The notes under the pieces were generated by a model. It was not told the DNA's origin. It did no database searches and saw nothing but the letters and a program-made list of their open reading frames with translations. The translations under genes and the position numbers were made by a program. Shown here piece by piece: positions 6,055 to 36,460 of a stretch of DNA of 64,000 nt; positions within the stretch are counted from its first letter, which is position 1; each line of letters begins with the position of its first letter. Source of the stretch: an uncultured Bacteroidota bacterium (GTDB taxonomy: Bacteria > Bacteroidota > Bacteroidia > Bacteroidales > UBA12481); assembly GCA_903919925.1 (NCBI GenBank), contig CAIXKO010000904.1, positions 1,625-65,624 on the forward strand, in the 5' to 3' direction.

Positions 6055-6068
6055 TTTCTCATCAATTT

Positions 6069-17497: not shown

Positions 17498-20400
17498 TTG
17501 AACACCTGCACCCACTGACCTTTAATTACAGCAGAAACTTTCCGGTCATACATATCGCCGCACTGGAGGGCAGGTAGGTAGAACTGACCTGTGTAGGCAG
17601 CATTCAGCATTACCTCATAAGTAACAGACTGACCCTGGGAAAGAGCAAAAAATGTAAAAACACGATCGTCACGTACGTCGCGGTATTCATAAGGGCTTTC
17701 CACTACAAAACTCTCCTGGTCAGTAATCCGGTAATTGACAATTTCCCAGCCTGAAGGAAAAATCTGGCTGAGGGCCATCGTTGCATAATTGCCATAAGTA
17801 CCTGGATTTGTAATCGTTACCTTAGCTTTCAAATCGGTTCCCTGCTTCAATTGCGATACATTCAACAGATTGTTACGTAAATCAAGATACTGTATTGACG
17901 CCCTGAGGTTGAGTGAGTTATCTTCCTCCTGCCCCATGGAAGGCTGCCCAATAGAGGTAACGGTTACATACAGTTTATCTTTACCCGTATTCACTACCCT
18001 AACATTTCCCTTGTCGCCCGTTGATGGCAAGCTAATTCGGTGAACTGCTTTTTTTGAATCGATTTCTGTTTTCTCTGATCCGCTAAAAAGGGTAAAATGC
18101 AGATTGCCCGGATTTTTCCTTTTGCCGGCGAACTCAGCAATAGCATACAAACAATAAGCCGCCGTTTGAGTACTGATCTCGCCTTCCCGGAGGTCTTTTG
18201 CAATTTTCCCAACCAGGTCAAATGCAGCCTCCTCGCGGCCCATAAGATTTAAGGCATTCAGAACGATTGCTTCATCGCGCAAGCTGGAACCGTAAGTACT
18301 TCCGGGAGATGAATAACGATTAACAGGAGCTGAGGCTAAATTCCGAATCAGTTTTTCAGCCACCTGGCAGCGGCCAATCAGGCAATATGCTGAAGCCAGC
18401 ATCCATGTGGCAGTGTAATCAGGGATAGGGCGCTCTACCATCCGGTTCATCGCGCTCAGGTTTGGCTGGCCGCCCAGGGCCAAAGCAAATAACCGGTATG
18501 CCTGCTGCAATGGAAAGTCGGTTTGAAACTCTCCTGTACCAGCAGGATCAGATGAGACTTTTGACTGATAGCCAACCAATTTCTTTTTAAAACCGGACGG
18601 CAACAGGTAGCCCTTTTGCTCGGCTAATAATAAGAAATGCATGGCATAAGTGGTTCCCCAATAAGATGTTGTTCTGCCACCCGGCCAAAAAGCCAGACTA
18701 CCATCGGGTAATTGGAATTTTGTGAGTGATAGTATGGCTGCCGCAACATTCTTTTCCACCTTTTGCTGCTCCAGTCCAGGCATCTCAGCCAGCTGGTCCA
18801 GATAAAGCTGAGAAAAGGCAGCTGATGTTGTTTGTTCCACACAGCCGTAAGGATACTGAATCAGGTAACCAATATGCTTTTCAAGATCGAATGATGGGAG
18901 AGTAGCTACTTCGATAAAGCTTTGGACAGATCCGGTGGCACCATCAAAAACCGGAGCCAGCTTTTCTTCCTTGCCAGGCTCGACCACCGATCGTGATAAG
19001 CGGGAAATGGTTGGATTCGGATTTTGAACATCCAGTTCAATTTCATGAAAAGCGGTCTCTTGTCCAGAAACAACATCGATCCTGATTTTAGCAACTCCCG
19101 GCTTGTCAGTTGCTTTCACACTAAAAGCAGTCATTACCTCGCCAATTTTGGAGATTGCCAAAGTATTCCGCGAGGGTCCGGCCAGTTCCAGTGATCCTTT
19201 AACGGTAATACTCACTTCGGCGCTGGTTATCTTATTATCGAGAGTAAAAATACTAACCGGCACATCAACCAGTTCCCCGAAACTAAGCTTGCGCGGCATA
19301 GTAGCCAACACCATCAGTGGTTTTTTAACAGGTGCAGCTGCTTCGGCAGAGCCCCAGGCTTTACTGTTTCCGGCAACCACCATTGCACGCACTGAACCCA
19401 CGTAATTCGGCATCTTTAAAGTATGCTTGTTCACTCCTCCTTTTTTCAGGTCGAAAGGGCCGATAAAAGTAATGACAGGTTTAAAACGGTTGGCTTTCTG
19501 ATCAGAGGGATTAACCAGGCCACCATCGCCGCCGATGGCCAGAACACTCTCGAGTCTGCCACCGTAAGCCCCTAGAACATCACTGAAATTATCCCAGGTT
19601 TTTACGCCAAGGGCTTCCTTCCGGTTAAAGAAGTTCCAGGGATCGGGAGTCTTAAACCGGGTGAGGTTGAGCAAACCTTCATCCACCACGGCCAGGGTAT
19701 AGGTCATGGCTTTGCCGTTTTGCTCCGATACTTCCAATCCATAATCCTGCTCGGGCCGGATTTCAGCCGGCAGCCTGATTTTCGGAGCCAACCGGCTTTC
19801 CGGATCTTCCACCATCAGCGGGATTACCCCATACAACCTGATTGGCAGATCGTTGGAACTATTAGCATGCGGTTGTATTAATGTCAGGTAAACATATACG
19901 TTTGGGGTCATATCCGGGGTGATATCCAGACTGAGCCTGGTTTCGCCTTTATTAGCTTCCACCCATCGGGTTTCCAGAACTCGTGTCCCCGATTCAATGG
20001 TTAACAAAGCCCTGGAGTTCTCCATTCCCGGAAAAGTGATCTGTGCTTTTTCACCTGGATGGTAAACTTTTTTATCTGCCGAAAAGCTCAGAATTGCAGC
20101 ACCCGACGGGTCTGCCCTGCCGCTTCGGTCGGCCGATGAAGGCCAGTCAATATAAATAATTTGCCCCGTGCTATGCCCTTTTTCCGGATCGGAAACAATA
20201 ATCAGGTAACGTCCCCAATCGGGATAATCGACCTTAAAATTAAAGCTTCCCTTTCCATTTAGTGCACTAAAAGAAGTTTCCTGAACCATAAATTCATCTT
20301 TTCGTCCGATATAGGAAGCCAAATTCTCATCTGAAGCTCCCCACCACCACCTCCATTCAATTTTGTAAACTCTGGCTATCAACTGATTAGCCTTAGTTGG

Positions 20401-23031
20401 CATGCCTTCAGGGTTTACTACTACCACTTCTACCGGGATATTCTTTCCGGTTTCCAAAAACTGGCGCGATTCCGTAATTCCATTGACTGATATTCCAACA
20501 TACCGGTCGAAAGGAGAAAAGGGAACAGAAATCATATCGGCACTGAAATCACCACCCTGCTCAAAAACGCGGCTATTGAAAATCGCGTTCAACATACCCG
20601 GGGAATCTCCGGTTGAAGTGAAATCTACCGGAAAGCTGACATAGCCATCGGCATCTAAAGATCCATCGAAAGCCGTTTCCTCATAAGAGTTAAACACCTT
20701 GGACGGATCCTCAAAAACATAATCGGCGTAACCGTTAAAAACGTTGGGTCTTTTGGTGAACCGCACTTTGACCTCGGCCCGGAGATTTCCGGCTGAGGCA
20801 CCATGAAGCCAGGCAGATCGAAACATAGCTTTCTGCCCCGGCTTTCCGGAAAGTAAAGGACTATTGGTAAAATCGATATTGATCTTCAACCTGTTGGGTT
20901 TAATCATTTCTACTTTTACCTGTTTCTCAAAACGTGTACCTCCCACCTGAATTACTGCCAGCCAATTTCCGGTAGCATCATCAGGGTTGGTAGGTGTTGC
21001 AAAACAATAAAATCCATTTTTACCCAAAGTTTTAACTTGTTTTGAAACCTGCTGACTCTTTGAATTATATAGTTCGAAAATTACCGGCTGATCATCCGGA
21101 AGTAGCCTATCCTTGTCAGATAAAATGAAGGACATGAAAAGTGTATCGCCTGGCCTCCAAACATCCCTTTCACCATAAAGAAAACCCTTGATGCCTTTTT
21201 TTACTTCATCGCCGGAAACGTCAAAACTACTGGCCGACAAAGAAGAACCGTCGTCAACCCTCAGAAATCCTGTTTGATCCCCCACTGATGCTTCAGCTAA
21301 ATAAGGCACCCCATCCGGCGTAATCTCGGCAATTCCATCACTATTGGAAGTCCCGGAGCCCAATAACTGCTGCTGAAAATTATATAGTTTTACCTCTGCG
21401 CCTGCCATTGGTTTGGCCGTTAACAGGTTTGTAACCACAGTCGTGAATTTTCGCTGGTCATAAGATTTAACTACGATCCCCAGATTGGTAGCCAGGATAT
21501 TTTTGCTGACAAAGCGCTCCGGATTATAATAAGAAACATCACATGGATTATCCCGCTTTTCCCAATCATATCCCTCTGGGAAGTAATCCTCATAATAGTA
21601 ACCATCAGAATCCCAACTGGAAAGATAAGCTTCATCAAAAGTTTCCAGAAGGAAATAAGACGAGATATCGGCAGGGGGAGCATCGGAACAATTACATAAA
21701 GCAAAAGGCAGACGGAACTTAATGTCAACTTTATAAAGTGCCTTGGGATCTCTTTTAACCAATGGAGTCAGGTCGATAGAAAATACATTCCACTGTTGAA
21801 GGTCGATTTCAGGGTTAAGGTCAAGCCGGAGCGTTTTACGGTACACCGGACGGCCAACATTCTTAAGATAGTCGGATGAGTTAAGTGTATTAAACTGAAA
21901 GAATTGTGGCAAAGTGTTGGCATATATTTTATAAACAATTATATCCACCGCTCTTAAGCTAACTGCTCGAAATGGTAGAAACAATCCTTTTGAATCAGGC
22001 ATCAGGCTTCCTTTTCCAATAAACTCCACTTTGGGTGAGAGTGCTTCCATGGTAAGCATAAAAGTTGCTTCTGACTTAAGAACATTCCCCTTAATGCTTC
22101 GTATCCCACTTACAATTCGCAGTTGCTGTTCCCCTGTCATCCGCACTTTTGGGTAGGCAAAAACCGAGTTATTCACTCTTGAGATCCGCAGTTCCTGATT
22201 CTCACCGAGGTTGATGAGACCTTGTAAGGATTGGAAGGGATCAACCGGATCTGAGAAATCAATCCGTACGAACTGTTCCTCACCCTGTTCAACCTTGGCG
22301 CCCAGGACCTTGAATTCGTTTTTTCCCGGAACCTCGATATCAAAACTGCCAGATTCCTTTAATTTCAACGAGCTTCCATCCCATTTCAAGGTCAGGGAAT
22401 AGGATTGATCTAATCGGAGCAAGCTATCGATGCGAAACTGGAAAGTAGTTCCGTTGACCTGCTCTAATCGGACCGGAACCGGGTTTTGTGAACCGGTTAT
22501 TGCAAAAATCCTAACAAAATCATCGGGGTTCATTCGATCGGAGCACAATATTCTGCCCTCATATTTCAGCATATTATCCTGATCATATGCTCCATAAATC
22601 ATACTTCCCTTTGATACAGAAAAATTTAGTGCAACCACTTCAAATTGAAAAGAATACAAACCGGATTTAACCTTTTCTCCTAATATGGGTAACAAGTTGA
22701 ATTCAGCACTAAACCGGGTTCCGTTTTTCAATGGTTTATCGGGTCTGAATTCAACAATACTGTTTGCGATCAGAAATGTTTTTCCCTTTATCGAGGGCGA
22801 AAAATTGAATAGCTGCTCTTTGATTTCCTCGCCTGAGCGATATCCTTCAACCGGATTGACCAGCATAACCTGAATAAAATCCCCTGATCCAATCATTCCC
22901 GAGGTATTCCCCTGGATATAAGCAGAAAAAGCTTTAGTTGACCCGACTTTGCTATTGTCAGCTTTTTTCCCGCAGCTGGCAACCAATAATAGCAGGAGTA
23001 CTAAAATGGATGAACCTTTAAAGATTTTCAT
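17494..23031 (-). CDS. Alpha-2-macroglobulin family lipoprotein (YfhM-like)
   Basis: 1845 aa. Lipoprotein signal (LLVASCGKK), repeated MG-like beta domains, and an intact thioester motif YPYGCVEQ. Classic pairing with pbpC. Confidence 0.92.
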   Translation of the reverse strand: MKIFKGSSILVLLLLLVASCGKKADNSKVGSTKAFSAYIQGNTSGMIGSGDFIQVMLVNPVEGYRSGEEIKEQLFNFSPSIKGKTFLIANSIVEFRPDKPLKNGTRFSAEFNLLPILGEKVKSGLYSFQFEVVALNFSVSKGSMIYGAYDQDNMLKYEGRILCSDRMNPDDFVRIFAITGSQNPVPVRLEQVNGTTFQFRIDSLLRLDQSYSLTLKWDGSSLKLKESGSFDIEVPGKNEFKVLGAKVEQGEEQFVRIDFSDPVDPFQSLQGLINLGENQELRISRVNNSVFAYPKVRMTGEQQLRIVSGIRSIKGNVLKSEATFMLTMEALSPKVEFIGKGSLMPDSKGLFLPFRAVSLRAVDIIVYKIYANTLPQFFQFNTLNSSDYLKNVGRPVYRKTLRLDLNPEIDLQQWNVFSIDLTPLVKRDPKALYKVDIKFRLPFALCNCSDAPPADISSYFLLETFDEAYLSSWDSDGYYYEDYFPEGYDWEKRDNPCDVSYYNPERFVSKNILATNLGIVVKSYDQRKFTTVVTNLLTAKPMAGAEVKLYNFQQQLLGSGTSNSDGIAEITPDGVPYLAEASVGDQTGFLRVDDGSSLSASSFDVSGDEVKKGIKGFLYGERDVWRPGDTLFMSFILSDKDRLLPDDQPVIFELYNSKSQQVSKQVKTLGKNGFYCFATPTNPDDATGNWLAVIQVGGTRFEKQVKVEMIKPNRLKINIDFTNSPLLSGKPGQKAMFRSAWLHGASAGNLRAEVKVRFTKRPNVFNGYADYVFEDPSKVFNSYEETAFDGSLDADGYVSFPVDFTSTGDSPGMLNAIFNSRVFEQGGDFSADMISVPFSPFDRYVGISVNGITESRQFLETGKNIPVEVVVVNPEGMPTKANQLIARVYKIEWRWWWGASDENLASYIGRKDEFMVQETSFSALNGKGSFNFKVDYPDWGRYLIIVSDPEKGHSTGQIIYIDWPSSADRSGRADPSGAAILSFSADKKVYHPGEKAQITFPGMENSRALLTIESGTRVLETRWVEANKGETRLSLDITPDMTPNVYVYLTLIQPHANSSNDLPIRLYGVIPLMVEDPESRLAPKIRLPAEIRPEQDYGLEVSEQNGKAMTYTLAVVDEGLLNLTRFKTPDPWNFFNRKEALGVKTWDNFSDVLGAYGGRLESVLAIGGDGGLVNPSDQKANRFKPVITFIGPFDLKKGGVNKHTLKMPNYVGSVRAMVVAGNSKAWGSAEAAAPVKKPLMVLATMPRKLSFGELVDVPVSIFTLDNKITSAEVSITVKGSLELAGPSRNTLAISKIGEVMTAFSVKATDKPGVAKIRIDVVSGQETAFHEIELDVQNPNPTISRLSRSVVEPGKEEKLAPVFDGATGSVQSFIEVATLPSFDLEKHIGYLIQYPYGCVEQTTSAAFSQLYLDQLAEMPGLEQQKVEKNVAAAILSLTKFQLPDGSLAFWPGGRTTSYWGTTYAMHFLLLAEQKGYLLPSGFKKKLVGYQSKVSSDPAGTGEFQTDFPLQQAYRLFALALGGQPNLSAMNRMVERPIPDYTATWMLASAYCLIGRCQVAEKLIRNLASAPVNRYSSPGSTYGSSLRDEAIVLNALNLMGREEAAFDLVGKIAKDLREGEISTQTAAYCLYAIAEFAGKRKNPGNLHFTLFSGSEKTEIDSKKAVHRISLPSTGDKGNVRVVNTGKDKLYVTVTSIGQPSMGQEEDNSLNLRASIQYLDLRNNLLNVSQLKQGTDLKAKVTITNPGTYGNYATMALSQIFPSGWEIVNYRITDQESFVVESPYEYRDVRDDRVFTFFALSQGQSVTYEVMLNAAYTGQFYLPALQCGDMYDRKVSAVIKGQWVQVFK

Positions 23032-23264: not shown

Positions 23265-23650
23265 ATGTATTTAGCCCCATTGAATTACGATCGGTACTTC
23301 AAAAAAGTTTTTTCTGATACCAGGATCGCCAAACGGTTTTTAGAGGATTTTTTTGATATTGAAATAGACGAACTGGAACTTCTATCGTAAAAGCATAAAA
23401 TTACAGATGACGCCTCGGCTGTTGAATTTGACTTCAGGTGCAAAATCAAGGATAACTTTGTTATTATCGATATGCAGCAATGGTTCAAAACTGATATCGT
23501 CAAGAGGTTTTACATGTACCATGCGATGAACGTGGTTTTGCAACTGGAGAAAATGCCAGGCAAAAGCATCGGTTTGGATGAAAACAAAAACACGGAATCA
23601 TTTGAACAGCAGTCGTTCTCCTCATTCACGGTGGTGGATAGGAAGAATAT
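23265..23650 (+). pseudogene. PD-(D/E)XK nuclease-family transposase-like remnant (in-frame stop, 3' truncated)
   Basis: MYLAPLNYDRYFKKVFSD...LELLS-TAA(23388-23390)-KHKITDDASAVEFDFRC...VIIDMQQWFK...RFYMYHA is read in one frame. The reading frame runs into the convergent gene ending at 23650. Confidence 0.65.
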
Positions 23651-25503
23651 TAACCCATTGCCGAAACCGGCTGCTTATGGCCTGTTTTGTGTGATTTCAG
23701 GACCGGCGATGGTACAGCTTCATGAATCATGCATTTTGCAACCACTTCAGCAAAATCCATAACCGGGATTTCGGAAACCGGAGCCAATGATTTCTTGCAC
23801 AGTGGACAGGCGGTGATCAGAATATCCGGGTGATTAATTGATAGCTCGCTCACTACTCCACGGGCAACAGCCCGCCGGGTGGCCAAATTCAGTCCTGGTG
23901 CCCCCAGGCTGCCCCCGCAGCAAAGTCCTTCGATTTTGGGTGTAACGTCAACCTGGTACAGCTCTGATATTAACTCCCTTGGTTCCCTGATAACACCCGT
24001 TCCACGGCCCAGCTCACAAGGTTCATGATAGGATGCCGCAAGCTCTTTCTTGTCCACTTTGATCCTGCCCCACTCCATGAGTTCCAAAATATATTGGGTA
24101 TGATGCAAAACCTTGATACCAGGTAGTGTATAATCCTCTTTAAACATCCGATAACAAATTGGACAGGAAGTTACCAGCAACTCTGCCCCTGAAGCGAGGA
24201 AATCTGCATGAAGCTGCTCTTTTATCCTGGCAGCTCCTGCTGACTGCCCGGCCAGTTTTAACGGTCTTCCACAACAGGCACCACCTTCGGAGTCATAAAA
24301 TTGCCACGATGAACCGGCTTGATTAAATATCAGTGTCATTGAGCGGATAATCGTCGGAGTAAGATGCGTCATGCAGCCAGCAAAATACAGAATCCGGCGC
24401 GATTGCCCGTTTCGTCCGAAATGGCCATAAGTATTTGCTTTTGAACCTAATGCAATATCGGAACGATTGATTTGTCTTAATGGCATTAACTCCAATCCAA
24501 CCGGACAAACCTTTTCACATCGCCCACATTGCAAACAGTCCCATTGAACCGCAGAAGGTTCATGGTGCCTGATCGACTTGATAAAGTAGTTACTTTGAAT
24601 CGGTCGTCCGGGCAATGTATCTGTCAGCTGGCAAGGATCTATACAAACTCCGCACGCCGAACAGGAATGTACCGACAAATCAGTATATCCTGGTGAAGAT
24701 TTGGACACCCTGATTCCATATTTTCGCAGGAATATCAGTACGGCTTCAGAAGGAATATGGGCATAACGGGTAAACGGAAGGCAAAAAAAGAAAAGCATCA
24801 ATACCAGCGAATAGAACCACCAGAATGGTAGTACAAGTGGCTCTGGATTTATTACTAAAGAGAGAATGTGTCCGAAAGTTCCGGTAAGAAAACTACCTGT
24901 GCCGTTCGCTCCGCAGGTAGCGCTTTCCGCAAGCAGGCGAATAGGGAAAATAAGCCATAAGGCAGTTAATGCAATCCGATCAACCGGACGCTGTTTGGTT
25001 GTATGCTTTAAACCTAACCAGGTTGAACGGAACCTCTTTATGATAGCCAACCCCAGTCCGCTCAGGACTATCAGTAAAAAGAAATCCATCCAGAAAGCAA
25101 AACCAGGCATATAAACCGATTTCGGAAAAGTTGGGCCCGGATCGAAAAAACGCCAAAACACAGAAACATAAATCGGTTTAAACAATCGTCCTGAATAATA
25201 GACTGACTCAATATTGCCTACTAAAATCAACATAAACCAACCAAATGCCAGGCTGGCATGCATGTATCCCAACCGTATATCGACTCCGAAAATTCTTTTA
25301 TGCAAAAGTGATTCCCTGATCACTTCACCAAGCGCTTTCCAAGTTTTGCCGGAAAAGATACTGCTGTTTAAAAGCTCCTTATCATCCTTTGAAAGACCTT
25401 CTATCCAGCGGATAATTTTATACAAAAAGAATATCCCGGTAAAGGAAAACCCAATAGTAAAAAGCAGAACAAAAGGATCAAAGGGATGGAATACCTTCTG
25501 CAT
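23650..25503 (-). CDS. Fusion protein: N-terminal polytopic membrane domain + 2x[4Fe-4S] + two CCG domains (HdrE/DsrM-like + HdrD/DsrK-like)
   Basis: 617 aa. About 6 hydrophobic helices in the first ~265 aa, with conserved-looking His (LLHKR, YMHAS, FGHIL, YAHIP). Then CSACGVCIDPC and CLQCGRCEKVCP. CCG motifs are ACCGRP...SCPIC and LCCGGS...ACPLC. Confidence 0.8.
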   Translation of the reverse strand: MQKVFHPFDPFVLLFTIGFSFTGIFFLYKIIRWIEGLSKDDKELLNSSIFSGKTWKALGEVIRESLLHKRIFGVDIRLGYMHASLAFGWFMLILVGNIESVYYSGRLFKPIYVSVFWRFFDPGPTFPKSVYMPGFAFWMDFFLLIVLSGLGLAIIKRFRSTWLGLKHTTKQRPVDRIALTALWLIFPIRLLAESATCGANGTGSFLTGTFGHILSLVINPEPLVLPFWWFYSLVLMLFFFCLPFTRYAHIPSEAVLIFLRKYGIRVSKSSPGYTDLSVHSCSACGVCIDPCQLTDTLPGRPIQSNYFIKSIRHHEPSAVQWDCLQCGRCEKVCPVGLELMPLRQINRSDIALGSKANTYGHFGRNGQSRRILYFAGCMTHLTPTIIRSMTLIFNQAGSSWQFYDSEGGACCGRPLKLAGQSAGAARIKEQLHADFLASGAELLVTSCPICYRMFKEDYTLPGIKVLHHTQYILELMEWGRIKVDKKELAASYHEPCELGRGTGVIREPRELISELYQVDVTPKIEGLCCGGSLGAPGLNLATRRAVARGVVSELSINHPDILITACPLCKKSLAPVSEIPVMDFAEVVAKCMIHEAVPSPVLKSHKTGHKQPVSAMG

Positions 25504-25828
25504 GGGGTTTAAGTTTTTGCATGATCAAAATGGAAAGGTACCTGGTAGGTATTCCGCGAGGACAAACAAGCTGACATTTTCCGCAGAGAAAACAGGATTG
25601 TTGAGCTTGATAATTATCAGCCCCTGAGGAGGATGCCCGTAAATGGTAATAAAAATCGCGAAGGTTAATACCGGCTGGGCAGGTGGCAGAGCATGATCCG
25701 CAATTCAGACAAGCGCTCCAGGCACTGACCAATCCTGCAAGATCATCAAAAAAGGAGGTATCAGCGTGATCCAAATCCAGTTGGCGTCCAGCCTGGATGG
25801 TAAATCCAAAATTCTTTTTACCGGTCAT
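25478..25828 (-). CDS. Small 2x[4Fe-4S] ferredoxin-like protein (HdrC-like)
   Basis: 116 aa. CLNCGSCSATCP and CFLCGKCQLVCPRGIP. Its 3' end overlaps the next gene by 26 nt. Confidence 0.75.
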   Translation of the reverse strand: MTGKKNFGFTIQAGRQLDLDHADTSFFDDLAGLVSAWSACLNCGSCSATCPAGINLRDFYYHLRASSSGADNYQAQQSCFLCGKCQLVCPRGIPTRYLSILIMQKLKPHAEGIPSL

Positions 25829-25834
25829 TTCTGG

Positions 25835-26869
25835 TCATCTGTTTTTTAAATATTGCCACGCTTCCATAGCTGCTGATCGGCCTGAGGCACTAGCCTCGGG
25901 GATACTCATTGGACCACAACAGGCTCCAGCCGTGAAAACACCGGCTTGCCCAGCTAAACGGCTGCCTGAAAATGTTTTGGCCATCTGGAAAAAGCCGGTA
26001 TCCAAATCAGTAACCTGGTGATTATCAACTTGAATTTGAGAGCACGCTGGTACCATGCCCACCAACAGCACCAGCCAGTCAACTGTTAATTTTAAAGGCC
26101 TTGACATGAGGGTATCTTCAGCCTTAAGAAGTATTTTATTTTGCTGATTTTCTGATGCTTCCGAAACCCTACCCCGAATAAACCGAACTTTATGCTTTTC
26201 CTGGGCCTCCCGATAGAGTTCCTCGTAACCAGTGCCGAAAGCACGAATATCAATGTAAAAATTTACGACTTTGCATTGCGGAAAAAGTTCCTTGATTTCA
26301 ATAGCCTGCTTGATTCCTGTGATGCAACATAAACGGCTGCAATAATTGATACCAACCTGCTGATCACGTGAGCCCACACAATGAACGAAAGCTATTGAGG
26401 AAGGATCGGCGCCATCGATCCGCAAATCAAGAGAATTGTTTTTAAGAATCCGTTCCAAATCGGGCGAAGTAACAACCCGTTTATAGATGCCATAACCAAA
26501 CTCTTCTTTGATCCGGGCATCAAAAAAATCGAAACCATTTGCTATAATGACAGAATCTGCAACCCCCACTTGCTCTGTACCAGAAAACAATGAAAATTGT
26601 TGATTATCTTTTTCTATCCGGGCAATTTCAATTCCAAAATGTTTTTTAACAGGATTCGTTCCGGTGGTTCCGATAAAATCTTCCAGTATCGAAGCTGCTG
26701 ACTCCCTACCTGGAAATAGTTGATGATAGTTATTTAATTTTCCGCCTGCTCCGTTTTCTTTATCGTACCAGTCAACTTCAATTCCAAGAGCAGCAGCAGC
26801 CACCGCAGCAGAAATTCCTGCCGGGCCAGCTCCAATCACGGCAATCCGTTGGTGGTTATCGTTTAACAT
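25835..26869 (-). CDS. Short HdrA-like FAD-dependent oxidoreductase
   Basis: 344 aa. VIGAGPAGISAA dinucleotide fold and the HdrA signature CVGSRDQQVGINYCSRLCC. It lacks the ferredoxin domains of long HdrA. Confidence 0.85.
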   Translation of the reverse strand: MLNDNHQRIAVIGAGPAGISAAVAAAALGIEVDWYDKENGAGGKLNNYHQLFPGRESAASILEDFIGTTGTNPVKKHFGIEIARIEKDNQQFSLFSGTEQVGVADSVIIANGFDFFDARIKEEFGYGIYKRVVTSPDLERILKNNSLDLRIDGADPSSIAFVHCVGSRDQQVGINYCSRLCCITGIKQAIEIKELFPQCKVVNFYIDIRAFGTGYEELYREAQEKHKVRFIRGRVSEASENQQNKILLKAEDTLMSRPLKLTVDWLVLLVGMVPACSQIQVDNHQVTDLDTGFFQMAKTFSGSRLAGQAGVFTAGACCGPMSIPEASASGRSAAMEAWQYLKNR

Positions 26870-27915
26870 ACATGTTGGTTAATCATTTCAGGATCACCAA
26901 TTAAAACTCCCTGTTTATCGGCATACTTCAATTCCGGATTGTAATCAATTCCGATTTTGTCCAGCAAAGCCTCTACTGGCACCTGATGCGTTTGCAATCC
27001 AATTTCCCATGGGTCATAACCCATTACAATTCCTGCCAGTTCCTCATGGGTAACCACCGGAATTTTAGAATCATCAGCTCCGTAAGTTGCCCCTTCGGTT
27101 TCTTCCAGTGTGTATTGCCAGCGATCCAGAAACATGGCGCAGCCAGGGCAATTGGCAACAATCAGATCGGGCTGGTAAGGCTGCATGGATTCCAGTTTGA
27201 TTTTGGACTGTGAAATAGAGTAACCGCGATTGGCCTGAACGAGGTAATTCCGGAATCCGAACCCGCAGCAATGCCGTCTTTCCGGATAATCAACCGTTAA
27301 TCCACCCCATGCGGTAATCAAGCCGGCCAGAACCTGCGGAAACTCTGACCCTCCGACACCTCGTTCCGGAAAAGTTTTTGCGTAATGGCAGCCAATATGA
27401 TCAACCACACGGAGTGGCTCACCTGTTTCTTTGTTTACCAATTTGTAACGTGCAATTCCGGCGATCTCATTGCGGTATTTGTATAAAATATCGGATGCAT
27501 GAACCATATTGGCAGGCTCGGTAAATACTCTGCCGGTTGCCTCTGCCAGGTATCCGGCAATCTTTTCTTTCAGCTCTGGCTGGTGCTTCCACAAATCAAT
27601 TATCTCAGAGTAAAGGCCAAAGGAAGTAACGCAGGAGGCCACCATATTTTGGTATGATTTCTCCTTCATCAGGGCAAATTGCCTCGCCACAACAGTCATG
27701 GTAGTCTCCAGAGGAACTATATCGGTGTGATAACCGATACCAGTGCAGGTAGTATGATCGGCATCCTCAAAAACATTTTTTCCAAGTTTATTGCGAAGGA
27801 TATCAATAAAAATATTTTCAGCTCCGGGGAAGAAATTTTGCCTGATACAACTCCTCACATAGAAGTAGTTATCATCTGCAATATCCTTTTGGTAATCTTT
27901 CCAGTATTTTTTCAC
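26863..27915 (-). CDS. HdrB-like protein with CCG domains
   Basis: 350 aa. GCHYAK...HCCGFGF...NCPGC. The GTG start overlaps the upstream TGA (GTGA). Confidence 0.8.
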   Translation of the reverse strand: MKKYWKDYQKDIADDNYFYVRSCIRQNFFPGAENIFIDILRNKLGKNVFEDADHTTCTGIGYHTDIVPLETTMTVVARQFALMKEKSYQNMVASCVTSFGLYSEIIDLWKHQPELKEKIAGYLAEATGRVFTEPANMVHASDILYKYRNEIAGIARYKLVNKETGEPLRVVDHIGCHYAKTFPERGVGGSEFPQVLAGLITAWGGLTVDYPERRHCCGFGFRNYLVQANRGYSISQSKIKLESMQPYQPDLIVANCPGCAMFLDRWQYTLEETEGATYGADDSKIPVVTHEELAGIVMGYDPWEIGLQTHQVPVEALLDKIGIDYNPELKYADKQGVLIGDPEMINQHVC

Positions 27916-28544
27916 AATTTATTATGCTTTTCAGATTCCGTTTCAATAGTATTCCAAAGATCTTTGCAGCCTGAGACTTCAAATATGCGATCGAGTTCAT
28001 CGAGAGCCTGGGTGCTGATTCTGCGCAATAATCCAGGACCGGCCTTATCATATCCCTGGTCAAAACGACCGTATACCTGATTGGCGTTACCCGACATCCA
28101 GGCCCAAACCGGACCTTGCTCCGGATGAGTAACCGGATCTACCCGTGTAGGGTGAATGCAATAGCCCGTTTCCAGAATATTATGCCCGATGGCACGTTTA
28201 ATAGCCAGCTGCTGACGGCCAAGAGTGGAGTTTACAAAAAGCCCGGTACGGATGGATACGGCTCGTAGAATCTGAATAAGCGCACCCGGAACATTTCCCC
28301 TGGGGCATCGGGGCTTGCAACTCATGCACTGCCCGCAATACCAAATAAGATCGGAGCTAAGCATTTCGGTTAACGTCCCCTCATCAGCTTCCTTAACCAG
28401 GTTCATGATCACTCGGGGATCATAATTATAATACCCTGAAGCAGGGCAAATTGCAGTGCAAACACCACAATTCATACACGACCGGCAAGCCTCCTCATAA
28501 CGGGGATCTGCAAGAATTTGTTGGTTAATAAGTGCTTTGTTCAT
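27912..28544 (-). CDS. HdrC-like 2x[4Fe-4S] protein
   Basis: 210 aa. CMNCGVCTAICP and CGQCMSCKPRCPRGNVP. Confidence 0.8.
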   Translation of the reverse strand: MNKALINQQILADPRYEEACRSCMNCGVCTAICPASGYYNYDPRVIMNLVKEADEGTLTEMLSSDLIWYCGQCMSCKPRCPRGNVPGALIQILRAVSIRTGLFVNSTLGRQQLAIKRAIGHNILETGYCIHPTRVDPVTHPEQGPVWAWMSGNANQVYGRFDQGYDKAGPGLLRRISTQALDELDRIFEVSGCKDLWNTIETESEKHNKL

Positions 28545-28551
28545 CAGATAA

Positions 28552-28559
28552 CAAAGCTA
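28552..28559 (-). promoter_or_regulatory. Candidate Bacteroidota -7 promoter element (TAnnTTTG) for the Hdr-like operon
   Basis: The minus strand reads TAGCTTTG, only 7 nt before the ATG at 28544. That implies a very short or absent leader if it is used. Confidence 0.3.
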
Positions 28560-28624: not shown

Positions 28625-29266
28625 TTATAGCTCCACCAGCTTCTCCTTAATCGCGTAAACCACGAGGCTGGCGGTATTGCGGCAACCGGTTTTTAAAAGG
28701 ATATTTGCTCGATGGCTGTCAACGGTTCGCTTACTAAGGCACAGTGAATCTGCTATTTCCTGTGTAGACATCCCTTTACAAATCAATAATATAATCTCCT
28801 TTTCACGGTCCGACAAAGGGGAATCAGGAGTTGTTTCCTCAGGTGAATTTTTCAGAGAATTGACCAAATTCATCAATAGTTCACGGGAAAAGTAATTGCC
28901 ACCCTCCATAACCGTTTCAAGGGCTAGTTTAACTTCACTGAAATCGGAGTTTTTCAAAAGAAATCCCTTTACACCGGCATCAACCATTTTAAAATAATAA
29001 TCCTGTTCCCCAAACATACTCAGTGTAATTATCTTTAAATCAGGATATTTAAGCAAAGCAAGCCTGGCAGCCTCTATACCATCCATTTCCGGCATTGCTA
29101 TGTCGAGCATAACAATATCGGGTTTACTTTGGTCGAGTATAGCTAAAAACTCTAAGCCGTTAGAAGCCTCGCCTGACACCTCAAATTTGTTTAAAGTATC
29201 GATCAGCACCCGCAGTCCCTTCCTGAAAAGCTTGTGATCATCCACCAAAAACACTTTATTTTTCAT
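28625..29266 (-). CDS. LuxR/NarL-family response regulator
   Basis: 213 aa. Receiver domain (VDDH..., DIVMLDIAMPEMDG, LSMFGE) plus a LuxR HTH (LSDREKEIILLICKGMSTQEIADSL). ATGA overlap with the kinase gene. Confidence 0.92.
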   Translation of the reverse strand: MKNKVFLVDDHKLFRKGLRVLIDTLNKFEVSGEASNGLEFLAILDQSKPDIVMLDIAMPEMDGIEAARLALLKYPDLKIITLSMFGEQDYYFKMVDAGVKGFLLKNSDFSEVKLALETVMEGGNYFSRELLMNLVNSLKNSPEETTPDSPLSDREKEIILLICKGMSTQEIADSLCLSKRTVDSHRANILLKTGCRNTASLVVYAIKEKLVEL

Positions 29267-30222
29267 AACTTCTTGATTGCTTTTACTTTAATAAACACCC
29301 TGATACCTAATCCAGGTTTTGATTCGACCACTAAATCACCCTTCAGCGATTTTATTCTGGATTGAATGTTAGTCAATCCAGATCCATCCCTGTCTTGTTC
29401 TTTCATTGTACGCTCAGCTTCGAAACCAATACCATTATCCTGATATTCAATGATCAGCTCGCCATTTTCATATCGGAGTACCAGGCTGGCCTTTGTTGCC
29501 TGAGAGTGCTGGATTGTATTATGAATCAGCTCACTGGTAACACGATAAATGACTACCTCAATGCTCTCATCAAATCGTTCGTTTTTAAGAGCAGTTTGAA
29601 AATCGATTTCCAACTGGCCGGTTTGCACAATTTTGTGGACATAATTGGCCAAAGCCCTGATTAGTCCAAAATTAGCCAGTACATGAGGGCTGAGATGGTC
29701 CGAAATATCTTTCAGGCTGCGGATGGCTTCGTCTACGGTTTCAGTGGCATTGCGAATAATGATCAGGCTTTGCTGATCGCGGGCAAGGTGCTCAAGAGTA
29801 GAAACCGACATTTTAACTGCGCTAAGAAGCGGGCCCATTCCATCGTGCAAATCTTTGGCGATGCGGGTGCGCTCAGCCTCTTCGGTTTGAATAATCGCGG
29901 ATAAAAAGCGTCGTTCAGTTTTTCGCCTTTCAATTTCCGCCTTTTTCATGTAGATGAATATCTGCTGGATAAGATATACCCCGGTGGCAAAAAACACAGA
30001 GGTAATCACACCCATCCAAATGTACAATTCCCTGAAATAATCAGGCTTAAAATTGCTGATAAACGGAAGAAACTCCATAAATCGCAGGATAACCATCAGC
30101 AGAAAGCCAACGGTAATGAGTATCCAGGAAAGGGCATATTTGGTTACGCTAAACAATCTTAGCGCGATTCCGGCTGCTATCAATTGAAGAATAATAGACA
30201 GGGCGAGGAGAATCTTAAGCAT
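29263..30222 (-). CDS. Sensor histidine kinase, HisKA_3 (NarX/DesK-like), membrane-embedded input
   Basis: 319 aa. Four N-terminal TM helices with almost no extracytoplasmic loop. H-box IAKDLHDGMGP; ATPase motifs YQDNGIGF and GSGLTNIQSR. Confidence 0.9.
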   Translation of the reverse strand: MLKILLALSIILQLIAAGIALRLFSVTKYALSWILITVGFLLMVILRFMEFLPFISNFKPDYFRELYIWMGVITSVFFATGVYLIQQIFIYMKKAEIERRKTERRFLSAIIQTEEAERTRIAKDLHDGMGPLLSAVKMSVSTLEHLARDQQSLIIIRNATETVDEAIRSLKDISDHLSPHVLANFGLIRALANYVHKIVQTGQLEIDFQTALKNERFDESIEVVIYRVTSELIHNTIQHSQATKASLVLRYENGELIIEYQDNGIGFEAERTMKEQDRDGSGLTNIQSRIKSLKGDLVVESKPGLGIRVFIKVKAIKKL

Positions 30223-31540: not shown

Positions 31541-33280
31541 CTAATCTTCTGACATTTCTTTCATCATTTCGCGATATTTTGAAAATACCCGGGCCCGGCT
31601 AATGCAGCCAACATATTTACCCTGATCTAAAACCACCAGGATATATTTCCCGGAGGCTTGAATTTTCTGAGCCACCTGCTCAACAGAATCGCTCACTTCA
31701 ACAAGGTATTCCGGCGTATACATAAGATCGCTGCACAGAGTTGTTTGATACTGATCTGTTTTGAACATTACCGGTCGCAATCGCTCCATAATAATTAACC
31801 CCATAAATAACCCCGATGAATCCAGCACCGGAAACACATTACGGGTAGATTGTGCCACTACCTGAACTAAATCACCAAGAGTTTGATCCGGAGAAACCGG
31901 CTGAATGTCATGCTCAATCAATCCCCTGATATTCATTCGGGTCAAAGCTGCCTTATCTTTATTGTGTGTTATCAGTTCCCCACGGCTTGCCAAACGACTG
32001 GTATAAACCGAATGTGGTTCAACCAGATGGGCAGTCAGATAGGATATAGCAACCGTCAGCATCAAGGGTATTATCAGCAGGTAACCACCCGTAATCTCAG
32101 CAATAAGAAACATTGCGGTCAGAGGAGAACGCATGACTCCCGACATCACACCAGCCATGCCTACCAGGGTAAAATGGATTTCCGATACATTGATCATCCC
32201 GATATTATTCAGCAACCGAGCCAGGAAAAAGCCACTTAATCCACCCAGAAAAAGGCTCGGAGCAAACACCCCACCCACGCCACCTGCACCGGTGGTTACT
32301 CCCGTTGCGATTGCTTTAACCAGGATAATCCCAAGAATTACTCCCGGAAAAATCCAGGGGTCGTTTATCTGATTAAACCACAAGCTATTGACTAAAAGCT
32401 CTCCGGAATTCCCCATCAGCAGGCTATGCAACGCAAGGTAACCTTCGCCATAAAGAGGAGGAAACAGAACGATAAGTAAAGCAAGTATAGCACCACCGGT
32501 CAGCCATCTGATCCACACGGAGGATATGGCCTCCATCTTTTCTTCCACAAACCGGAGTACCTGTGTAAAATATACTGATACCACCCCGGTAAAAACTCCC
32601 AGAATCAGAAATGCCGGCAATTCAGACACGGTAAAAATGTCGGTCAAAGAATAAGAAAACAAAGCTGCATCGCCCATCAGGAGCCAGGCTACAGAAGTTG
32701 CCGTAACTGCTGAAATCATCAGGGGAAGGAGCGATGCCATCGTCAAATCGAGCATCAGCACTTCAATAGCAAAAAGTACTCCGGCAATGGGTGCCTTAAA
32801 TATTCCGGCTACTGCCCCGGTGGCTCCGCATGCAACCAGCAAAGTCACCGATTTGTAATTTAAGTGAAATCGTTGCCCCATCCATGATCCTACTGCTGAA
32901 CCAGTTAACACAATTGGTGCTTCCAATCCAACAGATCCTCCAAAACCAACAGTTAAAGTACTGGCCACCATGGAAGTATGCATGTGATGGTGCTTGAGTA
33001 AACTGTTTTTTTTGCTGATAGCATATAATATCTTACTGATTCCATGAGAGATAGAATCTTTTACCAGATATTTCACATATAATACCGTCAGCAATAAACC
33101 GGCAATCGGATATAATAGAAACAACCAGTTTGCCTGAGATTCCCGGAAACCGCTGGTCAGAAATATATTAGTGTAGTAAACCGCATTTTTGAGAATCACG
33201 GCAGCCAAACCGCTGATGGATCCAATAGCGAATGCCAGAATAAAAATAAATTGCCGGCTTTGCTTTAATCCTCGCTCCAT
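31541..33280 (-). CDS. ClC-family chloride channel/antiporter with C-terminal CBS pair
   Basis: 579 aa. GFGGSVGLEAP, GIFKAPIAG and GGVFAPSLFLGG, with a CBS-like C-terminus. Confidence 0.9.
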   Translation of the reverse strand: MERGLKQSRQFIFILAFAIGSISGLAAVILKNAVYYTNIFLTSGFRESQANWLFLLYPIAGLLLTVLYVKYLVKDSISHGISKILYAISKKNSLLKHHHMHTSMVASTLTVGFGGSVGLEAPIVLTGSAVGSWMGQRFHLNYKSVTLLVACGATGAVAGIFKAPIAGVLFAIEVLMLDLTMASLLPLMISAVTATSVAWLLMGDAALFSYSLTDIFTVSELPAFLILGVFTGVVSVYFTQVLRFVEEKMEAISSVWIRWLTGGAILALLIVLFPPLYGEGYLALHSLLMGNSGELLVNSLWFNQINDPWIFPGVILGIILVKAIATGVTTGAGGVGGVFAPSLFLGGLSGFFLARLLNNIGMINVSEIHFTLVGMAGVMSGVMRSPLTAMFLIAEITGGYLLIIPLMLTVAISYLTAHLVEPHSVYTSRLASRGELITHNKDKAALTRMNIRGLIEHDIQPVSPDQTLGDLVQVVAQSTRNVFPVLDSSGLFMGLIIMERLRPVMFKTDQYQTTLCSDLMYTPEYLVEVSDSVEQVAQKIQASGKYILVVLDQGKYVGCISRARVFSKYREMMKEMSED

Positions 33281-35055
33281 TTCTTTAAAAGCTGCCGGTA
33301 GGAAGTAAACAAACGAGCCCTGGAAATAAAGCCAACATATTGGTTTTTTGACAGGACCGGAATATTAAAATCGCTGGACTGATGAAACTTATGGGCAACA
33401 TCTTCCATGCTTTCTCCCGGTGCAATGGTAACAGGAGATTTGGCCATCAGATTGCGGATAAAAACTTTATCGTAAAACTCCGGTTTAAACATAATATCAC
33501 GCACATGATCCATATTTAGCACGCCGTAATAATTATTTTCATCGTCCACCACAGGGTAAAGATTCCTCCGCGATATGGCGATCACTTTTACCAGGTCCCC
33601 TAGCGTGGCATCGAGTTTTACAGGGGTAAAATTGGTTTCAATCAACTTATCGACTTTCATCAGCGAAAGGACAATTTTATCTTTATCCTGAGTAAAAAGT
33701 TGTTTCCGTCGTGCCAGTTGGATATGATAAAAAGAGAGTGGCTGAAAATACCGGATGGTTAAAAACGAAACACCGGCGGTGATCATCAATGGAAGAATAA
33801 GATTGTAAGCCAAAGTAATTTCTGCCATCAAAAAGATTCCGGTAAGAGGTGCATGCAATACCCCTGCAATCATCCCCGACATTCCAACCAACGCAAACAA
33901 TACCAGAGAGATATCAGATTCAAAGAAATAATTATAGACCGATCCGAACAACAATCCGGCGGCCATTCCGGTAAACAGGCTGGGGGCAATAATTCCCCCG
34001 ATACCACCTGCTCCAAGGGTAAGAGCGGTTGCTACAACCTGCATCAGAATCAGAAGGGCCAATATTAAAATGGTGGCACCAGGTTCTCCGGAAAAAGTAT
34101 AATAGCCTGATTTGTCAAAAATAAAGCCCAGATCGCCATGCAAGGCCCTGTTGATGGAATCATAGCCCTCCCCATACAGGCTGGGAAACAAAAAGATAAC
34201 CACACCCAGTAATCCTGCAGCCACAAACCAACGGGTCCAATTAGAGCGGATGTTTTTAAAAAGATCATCAACCCCAACAATAACTTTGGTAAAATAAAGC
34301 GATACCAAACCGGTGAAAACTCCAAGCAAAATAAAGAGCGGAACATGTTTCAGCTGAAATATCTCGGTAATTTTCATTGCAATGAGCACATCCTGCTTAA
34401 GAAACAGGTAAGAAGTTAAGGTTCCGGTAATTGAAGCCAGGAGCAAAGGCATCAATGACGAGAGAGTAAGATCGAGCATCAGCACTTCGATAGTAAAGAT
34501 AATGGCTGCAATTGGAGCCTTAAAAAGCGCTGCCAGTGCACCGGTCACTGCACATCCGATAAGCAGGATGATTTGCCGGTAATTAAGATGAAGCAATTGG
34601 CCCAGATTAGATCCAATGGCGCCACCGGTTAAAACGGCAGGCCCCTCCAAACCTACTGATCCACCGAAGCCAACAGTTAAGGTACTGGTTAAGGCGGAGG
34701 AAAAAATATGGTGTGGTTTAATGGCACCTTTAGTTCCTGAAATCGCATGGAGTATAACAGGGATTCCCAAACCGACCCTGACTTTCAGTACGTTATGAAC
34801 CAAAAACACCACCAGGGCAATACCAACAGCCGGATATACAAAAAACCAATAATTATGCATCTCTGACGAAAACCCATGAGTAAGAAAAGTGCGGATCAGG
34901 TAAACAGCATTCTTCATTAAAACAGCAGATAGACCCGATAACAGACCAACAATTAATGAAACAGCCAGAAAAAAATTCCGGTTCGAAATATTCCGGATTC
35001 TCCATCTCAAGAATCTGACCAGCAGATTGTACCTTTTCTTTCTTTTTAAACTCAT
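33265..35055 (-). CDS. ClC-family chloride channel/antiporter with C-terminal CBS pair (tandem paralog)
   Basis: 596 aa. GFGGSVGLEGP, LFKAPIAA, GGIIAPSLFTG. Overlaps the downstream paralog by 16 nt. Confidence 0.9.
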   Translation of the reverse strand: MSLKRKKRYNLLVRFLRWRIRNISNRNFFLAVSLIVGLLSGLSAVLMKNAVYLIRTFLTHGFSSEMHNYWFFVYPAVGIALVVFLVHNVLKVRVGLGIPVILHAISGTKGAIKPHHIFSSALTSTLTVGFGGSVGLEGPAVLTGGAIGSNLGQLLHLNYRQIILLIGCAVTGALAALFKAPIAAIIFTIEVLMLDLTLSSLMPLLLASITGTLTSYLFLKQDVLIAMKITEIFQLKHVPLFILLGVFTGLVSLYFTKVIVGVDDLFKNIRSNWTRWFVAAGLLGVVIFLFPSLYGEGYDSINRALHGDLGFIFDKSGYYTFSGEPGATILILALLILMQVVATALTLGAGGIGGIIAPSLFTGMAAGLLFGSVYNYFFESDISLVLFALVGMSGMIAGVLHAPLTGIFLMAEITLAYNLILPLMITAGVSFLTIRYFQPLSFYHIQLARRKQLFTQDKDKIVLSLMKVDKLIETNFTPVKLDATLGDLVKVIAISRRNLYPVVDDENNYYGVLNMDHVRDIMFKPEFYDKVFIRNLMAKSPVTIAPGESMEDVAHKFHQSSDFNIPVLSKNQYVGFISRARLFTSYRQLLKKWSED

Positions 35056-36432: not shown

Positions 36433-36460
36433 TAACTCAAATCAATTACAACCGCTGATT

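Follow-up and report, generated by a model that had tools for sequence, protein, structure and literature searches.

The subject of this analysis is a cluster of five genes related to heterodisulfide reductase (Hdr) in a 64,000-nucleotide stretch of DNA, referred to below as the window, from an uncultured bacterium of the Bacteroidales (GenBank assembly GCA_903919925.1, contig CAIXKO010000904.1, forward-strand positions 1,625 to 65,624). All five genes lie on the minus strand, and in the direction of transcription they encode an HdrC-like electron-transfer subunit with two [4Fe-4S] clusters (27912-28544, 210 aa), an HdrB-like subunit with a GTG start that is the probable site of catalysis (26863-27915, 350 aa), a short HdrA-like flavoprotein with flavin adenine dinucleotide (FAD) and one [4Fe-4S] cluster (25835-26869, 344 aa), a ferredoxin with two [4Fe-4S] clusters (25478-25828, 116 aa) and a membrane protein fused to an HdrD-like part (23650-25503, 617 aa). 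By the coordinates of the open reading frames (ORFs), hdrC and hdrB share a GTGA start/stop overlap (27912-27915), hdrB and hdrA overlap by 7 nt (26863-26869), a gap of 6 nt separates hdrA from the ferredoxin gene (25829-25834) and the latter overlaps the fused gene by 26 nt (25478-25503); the five genes are translationally coupled. An earlier note, made from the sequence alone, had described five coupled minus-strand genes with just these overlaps and this gap, and the ORFs found at 23650-28544 are just those that it described. The motifs that it quoted (CMNCGVCTAICP, CGQCMSCKPRCPRG, HCVGSRD...YCSRLCC and HCCGFG) are all present in the window sequence, and its domain assignments for all five proteins were upheld by Pfam and NCBIfam.

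The lengths given above depend on the choice of start codons. Public gene calls (records of loci L001-L003) begin the fused gene 26 codons late, giving a product of 591 aa, and begin hdrC 23 codons late, giving 187 aa, and the same records have no gene call for the 116-aa ferredoxin. The shorter start of the fused gene would drop the conserved first transmembrane helix with its invariant residues F11 and F15, and that of hdrC would drop Cys23, a cysteine of the first cluster; as these residues are conserved upstream of the short starts, the long forms (617 and 210 aa), which the earlier note had rightly chosen, are the real genes. In databases the products go by unspecific names ('(Fe-S)-binding protein', 'heterodisulfide reductase subunit B', 'FAD-dependent oxidoreductase') and, since public calls truncate two of the five genes as well, the system is invisible to routine annotation.

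The five genes are strictly co-conserved. We inspected about 18-21 kb around the cluster in 87 homologous Bacteroidales loci and scored gene order by tblastn with the five window proteins; 76 of the loci have enough upstream DNA to be informative for gene order, the remainder being cut by contig ends. The order HdrC-HdrB-HdrA-ferredoxin-fused is identical in 76/76 of these, which come from different Bacteroidales/Bacteroidia species, have unrelated flanks and carry a fused gene 42-79% identical to the window copy, and the ferredoxin gene sits between hdrA and the fused gene wherever a locus resolves it. The earlier note's proposed check on co-conservation is thereby answered in its favour. Four loci obtained by exact protein look-up have the same five genes in the same order (fused gene 77%, 67%, 45% and 43% identical) between entirely different flanks. 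Of the five subunits HdrB varies least: its identity is still 58-67% in loci where the fused gene has fallen to 42-46% and HdrA to 37-48%, as one would expect of a catalytic subunit; a search for HdrB homologues returned the same Bacteroidales family alone and so does not inform on deeper kinship. With the 617-aa protein as query there were thousands of matches, and the best 120 are mostly full-length (~590-650 aa) with a few fragments from short contigs, their named sources being Bacteroidales, Bacteroidia or Bacteroidota. Relatives of the fused protein occur in at least 581 stretches of a collection with one genome per species, and the best 80 of these are all from Bacteroidales/Bacteroidia (labelled Rikenellaceae, Salinivirgaceae, Prolixibacteraceae, Marinifilaceae and Saccharicrinis, and including the cultured Plebeiibacterium sediminum) and derive from groundwater, digesters, rumen and faeces, fens, lake sediment and soil.

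Clustering of the flanking ORFs of the 76 loci gave no conserved accessory family, only lineage synteny. A ~180-aa lipoprotein-like ORF with no significant Pfam match lies on the same strand about 200 bp downstream of the fused gene in 34/76 loci (L006 and L032 among them) and is absent from the window; it may be an accessory gene or may again reflect lineage synteny, as does purL, which flanks the cluster in 30/76. In two loci an insert separates hdrA from the ferredoxin gene. In L058 (6615-7868) it is a gene for an unrelated lipoprotein of 417 aa carrying an InlB B-repeat, and in L054 (~6720-7630) it is ~900 bp of non-coding DNA; neither insert offers a hint of function, and the tight coupling of the window operon is thus not universal.

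The subunits were compared by blastp with those of a genuine type I sHdr locus, that is one of the Hdr-like systems of sulfur oxidisers (locus L088, Hyphomicrobium-type, reached via sHdrA homologues), in which the order is dsrE3-shdrC1-B1-A-H-C2-B2-orf-lbpA with tusA and soxYZ nearby. HdrC, a Fer4_8 protein whose best NCBIfam family is HdrC (5e-23, 81.6 bits vs a cut-off of 350), is closer to sHdrC1 (34% identity, 94 bits) than to sHdrC2 (42 bits), and its eight cluster cysteines are kept in 73-74 of 74 homologues, with C129 kept in addition in 73/74. HdrB carries a CCG domain, has HdrB as its best NCBIfam family (2e-44, 152 bits vs a cut-off of 450), aligns over its full length to methanogen HdrB structures (E 1e-26) and again prefers the first paralogue, sHdrB1 (28.5% over 347 residues, 119 bits), to sHdrB2 (55 bits). 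Its C-terminal CCG motif is complete (C176, C216, C217, C256 and C259). The earlier note's description of an HdrB-like protein with CCG motifs holds for the family and for this C-terminal motif but not for the N-terminal half, which keeps 3/5 cysteines (C23, C57 and C95, invariant in 74 homologues). In the alignment the Bacteroidales HdrB has three derived motifs in common with sHdrB1: the C-C of sHdrB2 and methanogen HdrB is replaced by (S/T)-C-T, their C-x-x-C is replaced by C-x-T-S-F-G, and the second motif reads C-C-G-F-G-F-R. All three are absent from sHdrB2 and methanogen HdrB.

HdrA has the pyridine-nucleotide-disulfide-oxidoreductase fold and its best NCBIfam families are HdrA2/HdrA, matched over the thioredoxin-reductase core only (HdrA2 219 bits vs a cut-off of 1100). 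Residues 9-338 align with the whole of 6TJR, the sHdrA of Hyphomicrobium denitrificans (E 4e-49), whereas methanogen HdrA structures cover residues 105-337 only, with 39% identity in this core; identity to the sHdrA of L088 is 32% (164 bits). Cysteines C164, C177, C181 and C182 are invariant in 79/79 homologues and suffice for one [4Fe-4S] cluster, and the alignments revealed neither further cluster motifs nor the N-terminal, inserted and C-terminal ferredoxin domains of methanogen HdrA, so that the 344-aa HdrA lacking ferredoxin domains of the earlier note is, by Pfam and by alignment, an FAD plus one-cluster core and nothing more. A full scan of 1.84 billion representative proteins found many short HdrAs (~330-360 aa, 36-63% identity), and in a neighbour-joining (distance) tree of the core region these stand apart from the long HdrAs, the methanogen references included. 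Named members of the inner clade of short proteins are Bacteroidales or Marinilabiliaceae (Breznakibacter xylanolyticus), while the basal branches beside 6TJR include one cluster named as Aquificaceae and a second whose metagenome-assembled genomes are named as Deltaproteobacteria or as unassigned 'bacterium'. Bootstrap values are 74/100 for the Bacteroidales-type clade and 27/100 for the split of all short from all long HdrAs, and on account of the latter value the deeper grouping with the sHdrA of sulfur oxidisers is tentative. The subunit-by-subunit comparison with L088 and the common derived motifs of HdrB nevertheless bear out the resemblance to the C1-B1-A order of sHdr clusters that the earlier note had remarked on, and the first three genes are an sHdrC1-B1-A-type core.

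The fourth product is a dicluster ferredoxin (Fer4_8, 5.5e-12) with eight cysteines invariant in 69/69 homologues, which agrees with its earlier description as a second HdrC-like ferredoxin with two [4Fe-4S] clusters; to sHdrC1 and sHdrC2 of L088 it shows generic ferredoxin similarity only.

The fused protein has a membrane domain of five helices (~aa 1-260, 24724-25503; hydrophobic segments at residues 8-31, 78-101, 129-160, 174-195 and 221-250, in agreement with the helices of an AlphaFold2 model), an HdrC-like domain for two [4Fe-4S] clusters (~aa 275-340, 24484-24681; Fer4_8/Fer4_7 over residues 278-337) and two CCG, or non-cubane cluster, domains (~aa 366-590, 23734-24408; Pfam CCG stretches from residue 371). 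The eight cysteines of the cubane clusters (C281, C284, C287, C291, C323, C326, C329 and C333) are invariant in 84/84 homologues, as are the ten CCG cysteines, which make both non-cubane sites complete, and the histidines H68, H82 and H249. The protein is accordingly the 617-aa fusion of membrane and HdrD parts that was first read from the sequence. That the fusion might be a sequencing artefact, a concern raised by the earlier note, is ruled out by the abundance of full-length homologues of ~590-650 aa with all 18 cluster cysteines and three histidines invariant. The AlphaFold2 model has a mean predicted local distance difference test score (pLDDT) of 70.7, the membrane and CCG parts being confident and the cubane domain poor. 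Its top Foldseek match, over the whole length, is 9OJN, the EtfD of Mycobacterium smegmatis (E 4.6e-15), followed for the CCG part by LutA and HdrB chains; phmmer against the Protein Data Bank found 9OJN only, over the last CCG region, and identity to EtfD is 17%. EtfD is a proven menaquinone oxidoreductase for electron-transferring flavoprotein (ETF) (PMC13083937), and it and the EMO of Syntrophus are single chains with five NarI-type helices, two cubane clusters and two CCG/non-cubane domains, a fold which is also that predicted for HdrDE; the fused protein belongs to this fold class. The proximal haem b is ligated by H78/H241 in MsEtfD and by H87/H251 in SaEMO, positions which are matched here by H82 at the start of transmembrane helix (TM) 2 and H249 at the end of TM5. 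The histidine of the distal haem (H233 in SaEMO, where it ligates the distal twin haem, and H223 in MsEMO) is absent from TM5, where an invariant tyrosine, Y231, stands 18 residues before H249 and no other histidine is invariant. From these residues we expect that the fused protein, like EtfD, binds one proximal haem b and has a quinone site on the cytoplasmic side of the membrane, and with a proximal haem only there would be no transmembrane redox loop.

None of the five subunits reaches a curated NCBIfam equivalog cut-off or comes near one, and none is assigned to a characterised family by that test, so that placement against such families, the check suggested by the earlier note, leaves the cluster fitting none of them cleanly. 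Scores for DsrMK, Qmo, Tmc/Hmc, GlpC, GlcF, LutAB, TfrB and SdhE-type proteins were far under the curated cut-offs and under the HdrB and HdrC scores, and these identities were rejected. The last module had been likened to HdrED or DsrMK: it is indeed membrane-embedded, but its closest solved relative is EtfD/EMO (joined, by model, by HdrDE), and the likeness to DsrMK fails (DsrK 53 bits vs a cut-off of 400). The earlier note had also reported no lipoate-binding protein, DsrE/TusA-like, MvhD, hydrogenase or formate dehydrogenase genes nearby, and for the window our searches agree. A Pfam scan of the ~45 likely-gene ORFs of the window (at least 100 aa) gave no GCV_H, DsrE, TusA, ETF, hydrogenase, formate dehydrogenase or MvhD, and tblastn with LbpA (the lipoate-binding protein of sHdr systems), DsrE3, TusA, sHdrH and the 156-aa ORF of the sHdr locus gave no match in the window (E <= 1) or in the 87 loci (E <= 1e-3). 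Nor was etfAB found among the window ORFs scanned or near the cluster in the loci inspected, and dsr and apr genes were found in neither; among the conserved neighbours of the cluster no sulfurtransferase family turned up. A soluble sHdrC2B2 or sHdrB3 is likewise absent from the window and the 87 loci, and what C2/B2-like sequence the cluster has lies in its small ferredoxin and inside the membrane protein.

How the cluster stands to known systems can be set out from these results. Published sHdr systems fall into type I, shdrC1B1AHC2B2, and type II, shdrC1B1AHB3-etfAB-emo, each forming one syntenic cluster according to the description in PMC11094781, and lbpA is held to be 'inevitably associated' with the hdr-like genes (PMC6067878). 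Type I (sHdrAA'B1C1B2C2 with LbpA, as in Hyphomicrobium denitrificans and Aquifex aeolicus) shares with the Bacteroidales cluster the order C1-B1-A followed by C2-like and B2-like parts, the best matches of HdrC, HdrB and HdrA to C1, B1 and A, the B1-specific motifs and the architecture of 6TJR. It differs in that here the 116-aa ferredoxin takes the position of sHdrH and C2, the B2-like CCG pair is fused to a cubane domain of its own and to a putative haem-b anchor, and LbpA, DsrE3, TusA and sHdrH are absent; as for HdrB, sHdrB1 begins with an N-terminal extension of ~85 residues that is missing from the Bacteroidales protein, and it has a single cysteine at the last CxxC, which is intact in the latter. 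Type II, whose carriers are given as Sulfobacillus, Chloroflexota, Actinobacteriota and Bacillota, is by published description alike in its C1-B1-A core, short HdrA and membrane-bound EMO-type protein, but the Bacteroidales cluster is without sHdrH, soluble sHdrB3, EtfAB, LbpA or sulfurtransferase genes and has the ferredoxin between hdrA and the membrane gene. As it agrees with both sHdr types in the core and with neither in the remainder, we file it under neither.

The membrane protein has its closest architectural relatives in EtfD and EMO (M. smegmatis and Syntrophus aciditrophicus, with FadF and DgcB as further relatives), likewise single chains with five NarI-type helices, two cubane clusters, two CCG domains and the histidine pair for a proximal haem b, and the source of the top structural match. 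Apart from the low identity, the difference lies in the partner, which is ETF in their case and here would be an Hdr-like flavoprotein module with a ferredoxin, in the distal cluster (a linear [3Fe-4S] in EtfD and [4Fe-5S] in EMO, whereas the fused protein has five cysteines in both CCG motifs) and in the tyrosine that replaces the distal-haem histidine of EMO. HdrDE of Methanosarcina is likewise built from a membrane part of cytochrome-b type and an HdrD part bearing two cubane clusters and two complete CCG motifs, but HdrE and HdrD are separate, they use methanophenazine and CoM-S-S-CoB, they have no HdrA, HdrB or HdrC partners, and AlphaFold3 models of HdrE place a distal twin haem whose ligand is missing in the fused protein. 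Methanogenic HdrABC (5ODC, 8RVV and 7BKB) belongs to homologous families, as the full-length HdrB and HdrA-core alignments attest, but its HdrA carries six clusters and its HdrB two complete CCG motifs, neither of which is true here, where HdrA is without the three Fe-S domains, the N-terminal motif of HdrB is reduced, no hydrogenase or formate dehydrogenase partner is encoded and the equivalog cut-offs are missed widely. QmoABC and DsrMK also tie an HdrA-like or HdrD-like cytoplasmic module to a haem-b subunit and menaquinone in sulfur metabolism; QmoC, however, is an HdrC-HdrE fusion without the CCG domains that the fused protein has (44 bits vs a cut-off of 300), Qmo has two HdrA paralogues, and there is no apr or dsr context here.

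Taken together, these likenesses suggest that the five products form one complex which would oxidise a thiol or sulfane-sulfur substrate at HdrB and pass the electrons via FAD and ferredoxin to menaquinone, an account to which we would give not quite an even chance. In its first module HdrB would provide a substrate-facing non-cubane site, HdrC two cubane clusters and HdrA the FAD and one [4Fe-4S]; the second would be a membrane protein of EtfD/EMO/HdrDE type with two non-cubane and two cubane clusters, one proximal haem b and, adjoining it on the cytoplasmic side, the menaquinone site. Electrons from a thiol or (possibly protein-bound) sulfane-sulfur oxidised at HdrB would run through HdrC to the FAD and [4Fe-4S] of HdrA, from there by way of the 116-aa ferredoxin, acting as the wire between HdrA and the membrane protein, to the Fe-S chain of the fused subunit, and so to haem b and menaquinone. 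Such a direct quinone wire would take the place of two things, the LbpA/NAD+ branch in type I systems and the step through EtfAB in those of type II. The path resembles that in EtfD/EMO, where a flavoprotein donates to the non-cubane clusters, and this fits the proposed chain; it also mirrors the role proposed for EtfAB-EMO in type II sHdr, where EMO is suggested to pass electrons to menaquinone (PMC11094781). The quinone-linked thiol/disulfide-type oxidoreductase of the earlier note is consistent with this homology. Energetics would be in keeping with the proposed direction. Thiol/disulfide couples lie at about -140 to -250 mV and menaquinone at -74 mV, and since the former are the lower, electron flow towards the quinone would be downhill.

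Several points weigh against this reading. LbpA and the DsrE/TusA proteins, which are held always to accompany sHdr, are absent from the window and from the 87 loci. The B1-type signature of HdrB suggests a sulfane-sulfur or thiol substrate, which in a cluster lacking LbpA and the sulfurtransferases amounts to a guess, and because the lipoate-maturation genes are missing as well a sulfane-sulfur substrate is not secured. Identities to the sHdr subunits are low (28-34%), the model of the fused protein is moderate in quality (pLDDT 70.7) with its cubane domain badly predicted, and both CCG motifs of that protein are complete, like those of catalytic HdrD/HdrB, so that it could be a second active site rather than a wire.

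The completeness of those motifs also speaks for the same complex run in reverse, as a terminal reductase serving fermentation or anaerobic respiration, in which menaquinol would deliver electrons through haem b, the Fe-S chain and ferredoxin to HdrA and HdrB, and either HdrB or the CCG site of the fused protein would reduce a disulfide, a trisulfide or another sulfur compound. HdrDE and DsrMKJOP, the best-known membrane relatives, are described as running reductively (PMC10861901). The organisms, too, would have a use for it, as anaerobic carriers need electron sinks, the window contains an Rnf operon and the habitats are digester, rumen, sediment and groundwater. Menaquinol (-74 mV), however, is too weak a reductant for ordinary disulfides and a high-potential substrate would be required; the single predicted proximal haem resembles the menaquinone-reducing EtfD and not the dihaem or twin-haem loop of HdrE/EMO; and the sHdrB1-type signature points to the oxidative sHdr enzymes. 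We therefore think reduction unlikely, though worth keeping in mind.

If instead the cluster served a canonical sHdr-LbpA pathway, the accessory genes (lbpA, lipoate ligase/synthases, dsrE and tusA) would lie elsewhere in the genome and the membrane protein would act as the EMO of type II. We judge this improbable. The stretches inspected covered ~18-21 kb around each cluster, so that distant genes would have escaped notice, the core is of C1-B1-A type with B1 signatures, and type II clusters, as they have been described, already contain an EMO. Yet lbpA is held to go invariably with the shdr genes, the two types are defined by syntenic shdrH with C2B2 or with B3 and etfAB, and none of these occurs in the 87 loci; the carriers, moreover, are Bacteroidales of fermentative habit that are not known to oxidise sulfur, and Bacteroidota are unnamed among the sHdr-bearing phyla in the main text of the survey of GTDB genomes.

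The earlier note had added that the complex might be electron-bifurcating, which would have the FAD of HdrA couple the HdrB substrate, a low-potential ferredoxin and the quinone-linked subunit in flavin-based bifurcation or confurcation. In methanogenic HdrABC it is HdrA that bifurcates, and the core of the window protein (residues 105-337) is 39% identical to it; three redox arms are encoded, and the small ferredoxin could replace in trans the missing inserted domain. Against this, the HdrA of the window has FAD and one cluster only, and it is without the three ferredoxin domains (N-terminal, inserted and C-terminal) through which bifurcated electrons pass in the methanogen protein. Genes for a low-potential partner (MvhD, a hydrogenase, formate dehydrogenase or the like) are absent from the neighbourhood, and with menaquinone as acceptor both donor branches would be downhill and no coupling would be needed. 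Ernst et al. in 2021 reportedly observed a stable flavin semiquinone in sHdrA and judged it to be non-bifurcating. With so minimal an HdrA the suggestion is unsupported; its chances seem to us poor, and of the mechanistic options it is the least supported. Least probable of all is that two separate enzymes merely share the operon, the fused protein being an EtfD/EMO for a distant ETF and HdrCBA with the ferredoxin a soluble enzyme, since, even if EtfD, EMO, FadF and DgcB work with ETF and need no Hdr partner and the thiolase, SDR, CoA-transferase and KAS III genes at the start of the window indicate acyl-CoA metabolism in this organism, the five genes are adjacent and overlapping or abutting in the loci examined across 42-100% identity, the ferredoxin/fused junction included, no etfAB lies near any locus and EtfD is only distantly similar in sequence (17% identity, and a phmmer match confined to the last CCG region).

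Returning to a single menaquinone-linked complex, all of its parts come from known families and the recombination of Hdr modules is familiar; what appears to be a new variant is this combination. Full-text literature searching found the Bacteroidales arrangement undescribed among papers on sHdr types I and II, EtfD and EMO, a coverage that excludes the main review of HdrA modules, where an earlier mention is possible. Tentatively, and well short of calling it probable, we propose that the cluster is a third, LbpA-independent sHdr-like architecture, in which an sHdrC1B1A module is wired via ferredoxin to an EtfD/EMO-type subunit and couples thiol or sulfane-sulfur oxidation (or the reverse) to menaquinone. 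The cluster is widespread among anaerobic Bacteroidales from guts, rumen, digesters, sediments and groundwater; if the proposal were true, it would constitute an unrecognised respiratory input or output module in nominally fermentative bacteria, and ETF would not be the only electron donor that EMO-type proteins can use. In many anoxic habitats Bacteroidales are the dominant bacteria, and the set of electron-transport complexes credited to them is small (Rnf, Nqr, a partial complex I, fumarate reductase and cytochrome bd). A conserved five-gene quinone-linked complex would give their electron chain a further point of entry or exit, and in sulfidic guts and sediments a connection with sulfur or thiol chemistry would be of consequence. 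It would also illustrate modular rewiring: type I joins the sHdrB1-type module to lipoate/NAD+ and type II joins it to ETF/EMO, and in the Bacteroidales cluster the module seems to be connected to a membrane subunit directly. The cluster would, further, be a test case for whether the non-cubane clusters of EMO-like proteins can take electrons from ferredoxin. Cultured carriers exist, Breznakibacter xylanolyticus and Plebeiibacterium sediminum among them, through which the reaction of sHdrB1 could be approached without the LbpA machinery.

Upstream of hdrC lie the genes of a NarL/LuxR-type response regulator (28625-29266, minus strand) and a membrane histidine kinase of the HisKA_3 family (29263-30222, minus strand), both assigned by Pfam and NCBIfam. 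A similar two-component pair is found beside the cluster in ~12/76 loci, either upstream or downstream and inverted, which is a weak hint that the pair may regulate the operon. The sequence TAgcTTTG, 9 nt 5' of the hdrC start, resembles by eye a Bacteroidetes -7 box; a scan for sigma-70 promoters and terminators gave counts equal to the shuffled expectation, the sigma-70 model being unsuited to Bacteroidota promoters. On the other side of the cluster, between the fused gene and a macroglobulin gene, a stop-interrupted and truncated remnant of a 'transposase' of the PD-(D/E)XK nuclease family (23265-23762, plus strand; PDDEXK_2, E 2.4e-5, under the gathering score) overlaps with its 3' end the convergent end of the fused gene. 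The macroglobulin belongs to a classic A2M-PbpC pair (15113-23031, minus strand), in which a bacterial alpha-2-macroglobulin of 1845 aa is followed by a PBP1C-type transglycosylase/transpeptidase.

Further from the cluster, two tandem paralogous CLC chloride-channel genes with CBS domains (31541-35055, minus strand, 579 and 596 aa) also adjoin it in the close relatives L004 and L007. A block at the start of the window (171-7121, plus strand) encodes a thiolase, a short-chain dehydrogenase/reductase (the SDR mentioned above, KR-type), a sodium:solute symporter, an acetyl-CoA hydrolase/transferase and two proteins like beta-ketoacyl-ACP synthase (KAS) III; in L004 part of this block lies, inverted, at the opposite flank of the Hdr-like operon, which indicates that the region has been rearranged. 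A complete Rnf-type operon (51460-56972, minus strand), preceded by a gene of the RseC/MucC family, comprises two Rnf-Nqr membrane subunits, an FMN_bind subunit, RnfD, RnfC and an RnfB-like polyferredoxin, and marks the organism as an anaerobe with an ion-pumping ferredoxin:NAD+ metabolism. Finally, two paralogues of ~930 aa with Sortilin/BNR repeats (36425-39235 on the plus strand and 48456-51254 on the minus strand) end in a C-terminal sorting domain for type IX secretion, which confirms the Bacteroidota origin of the DNA.

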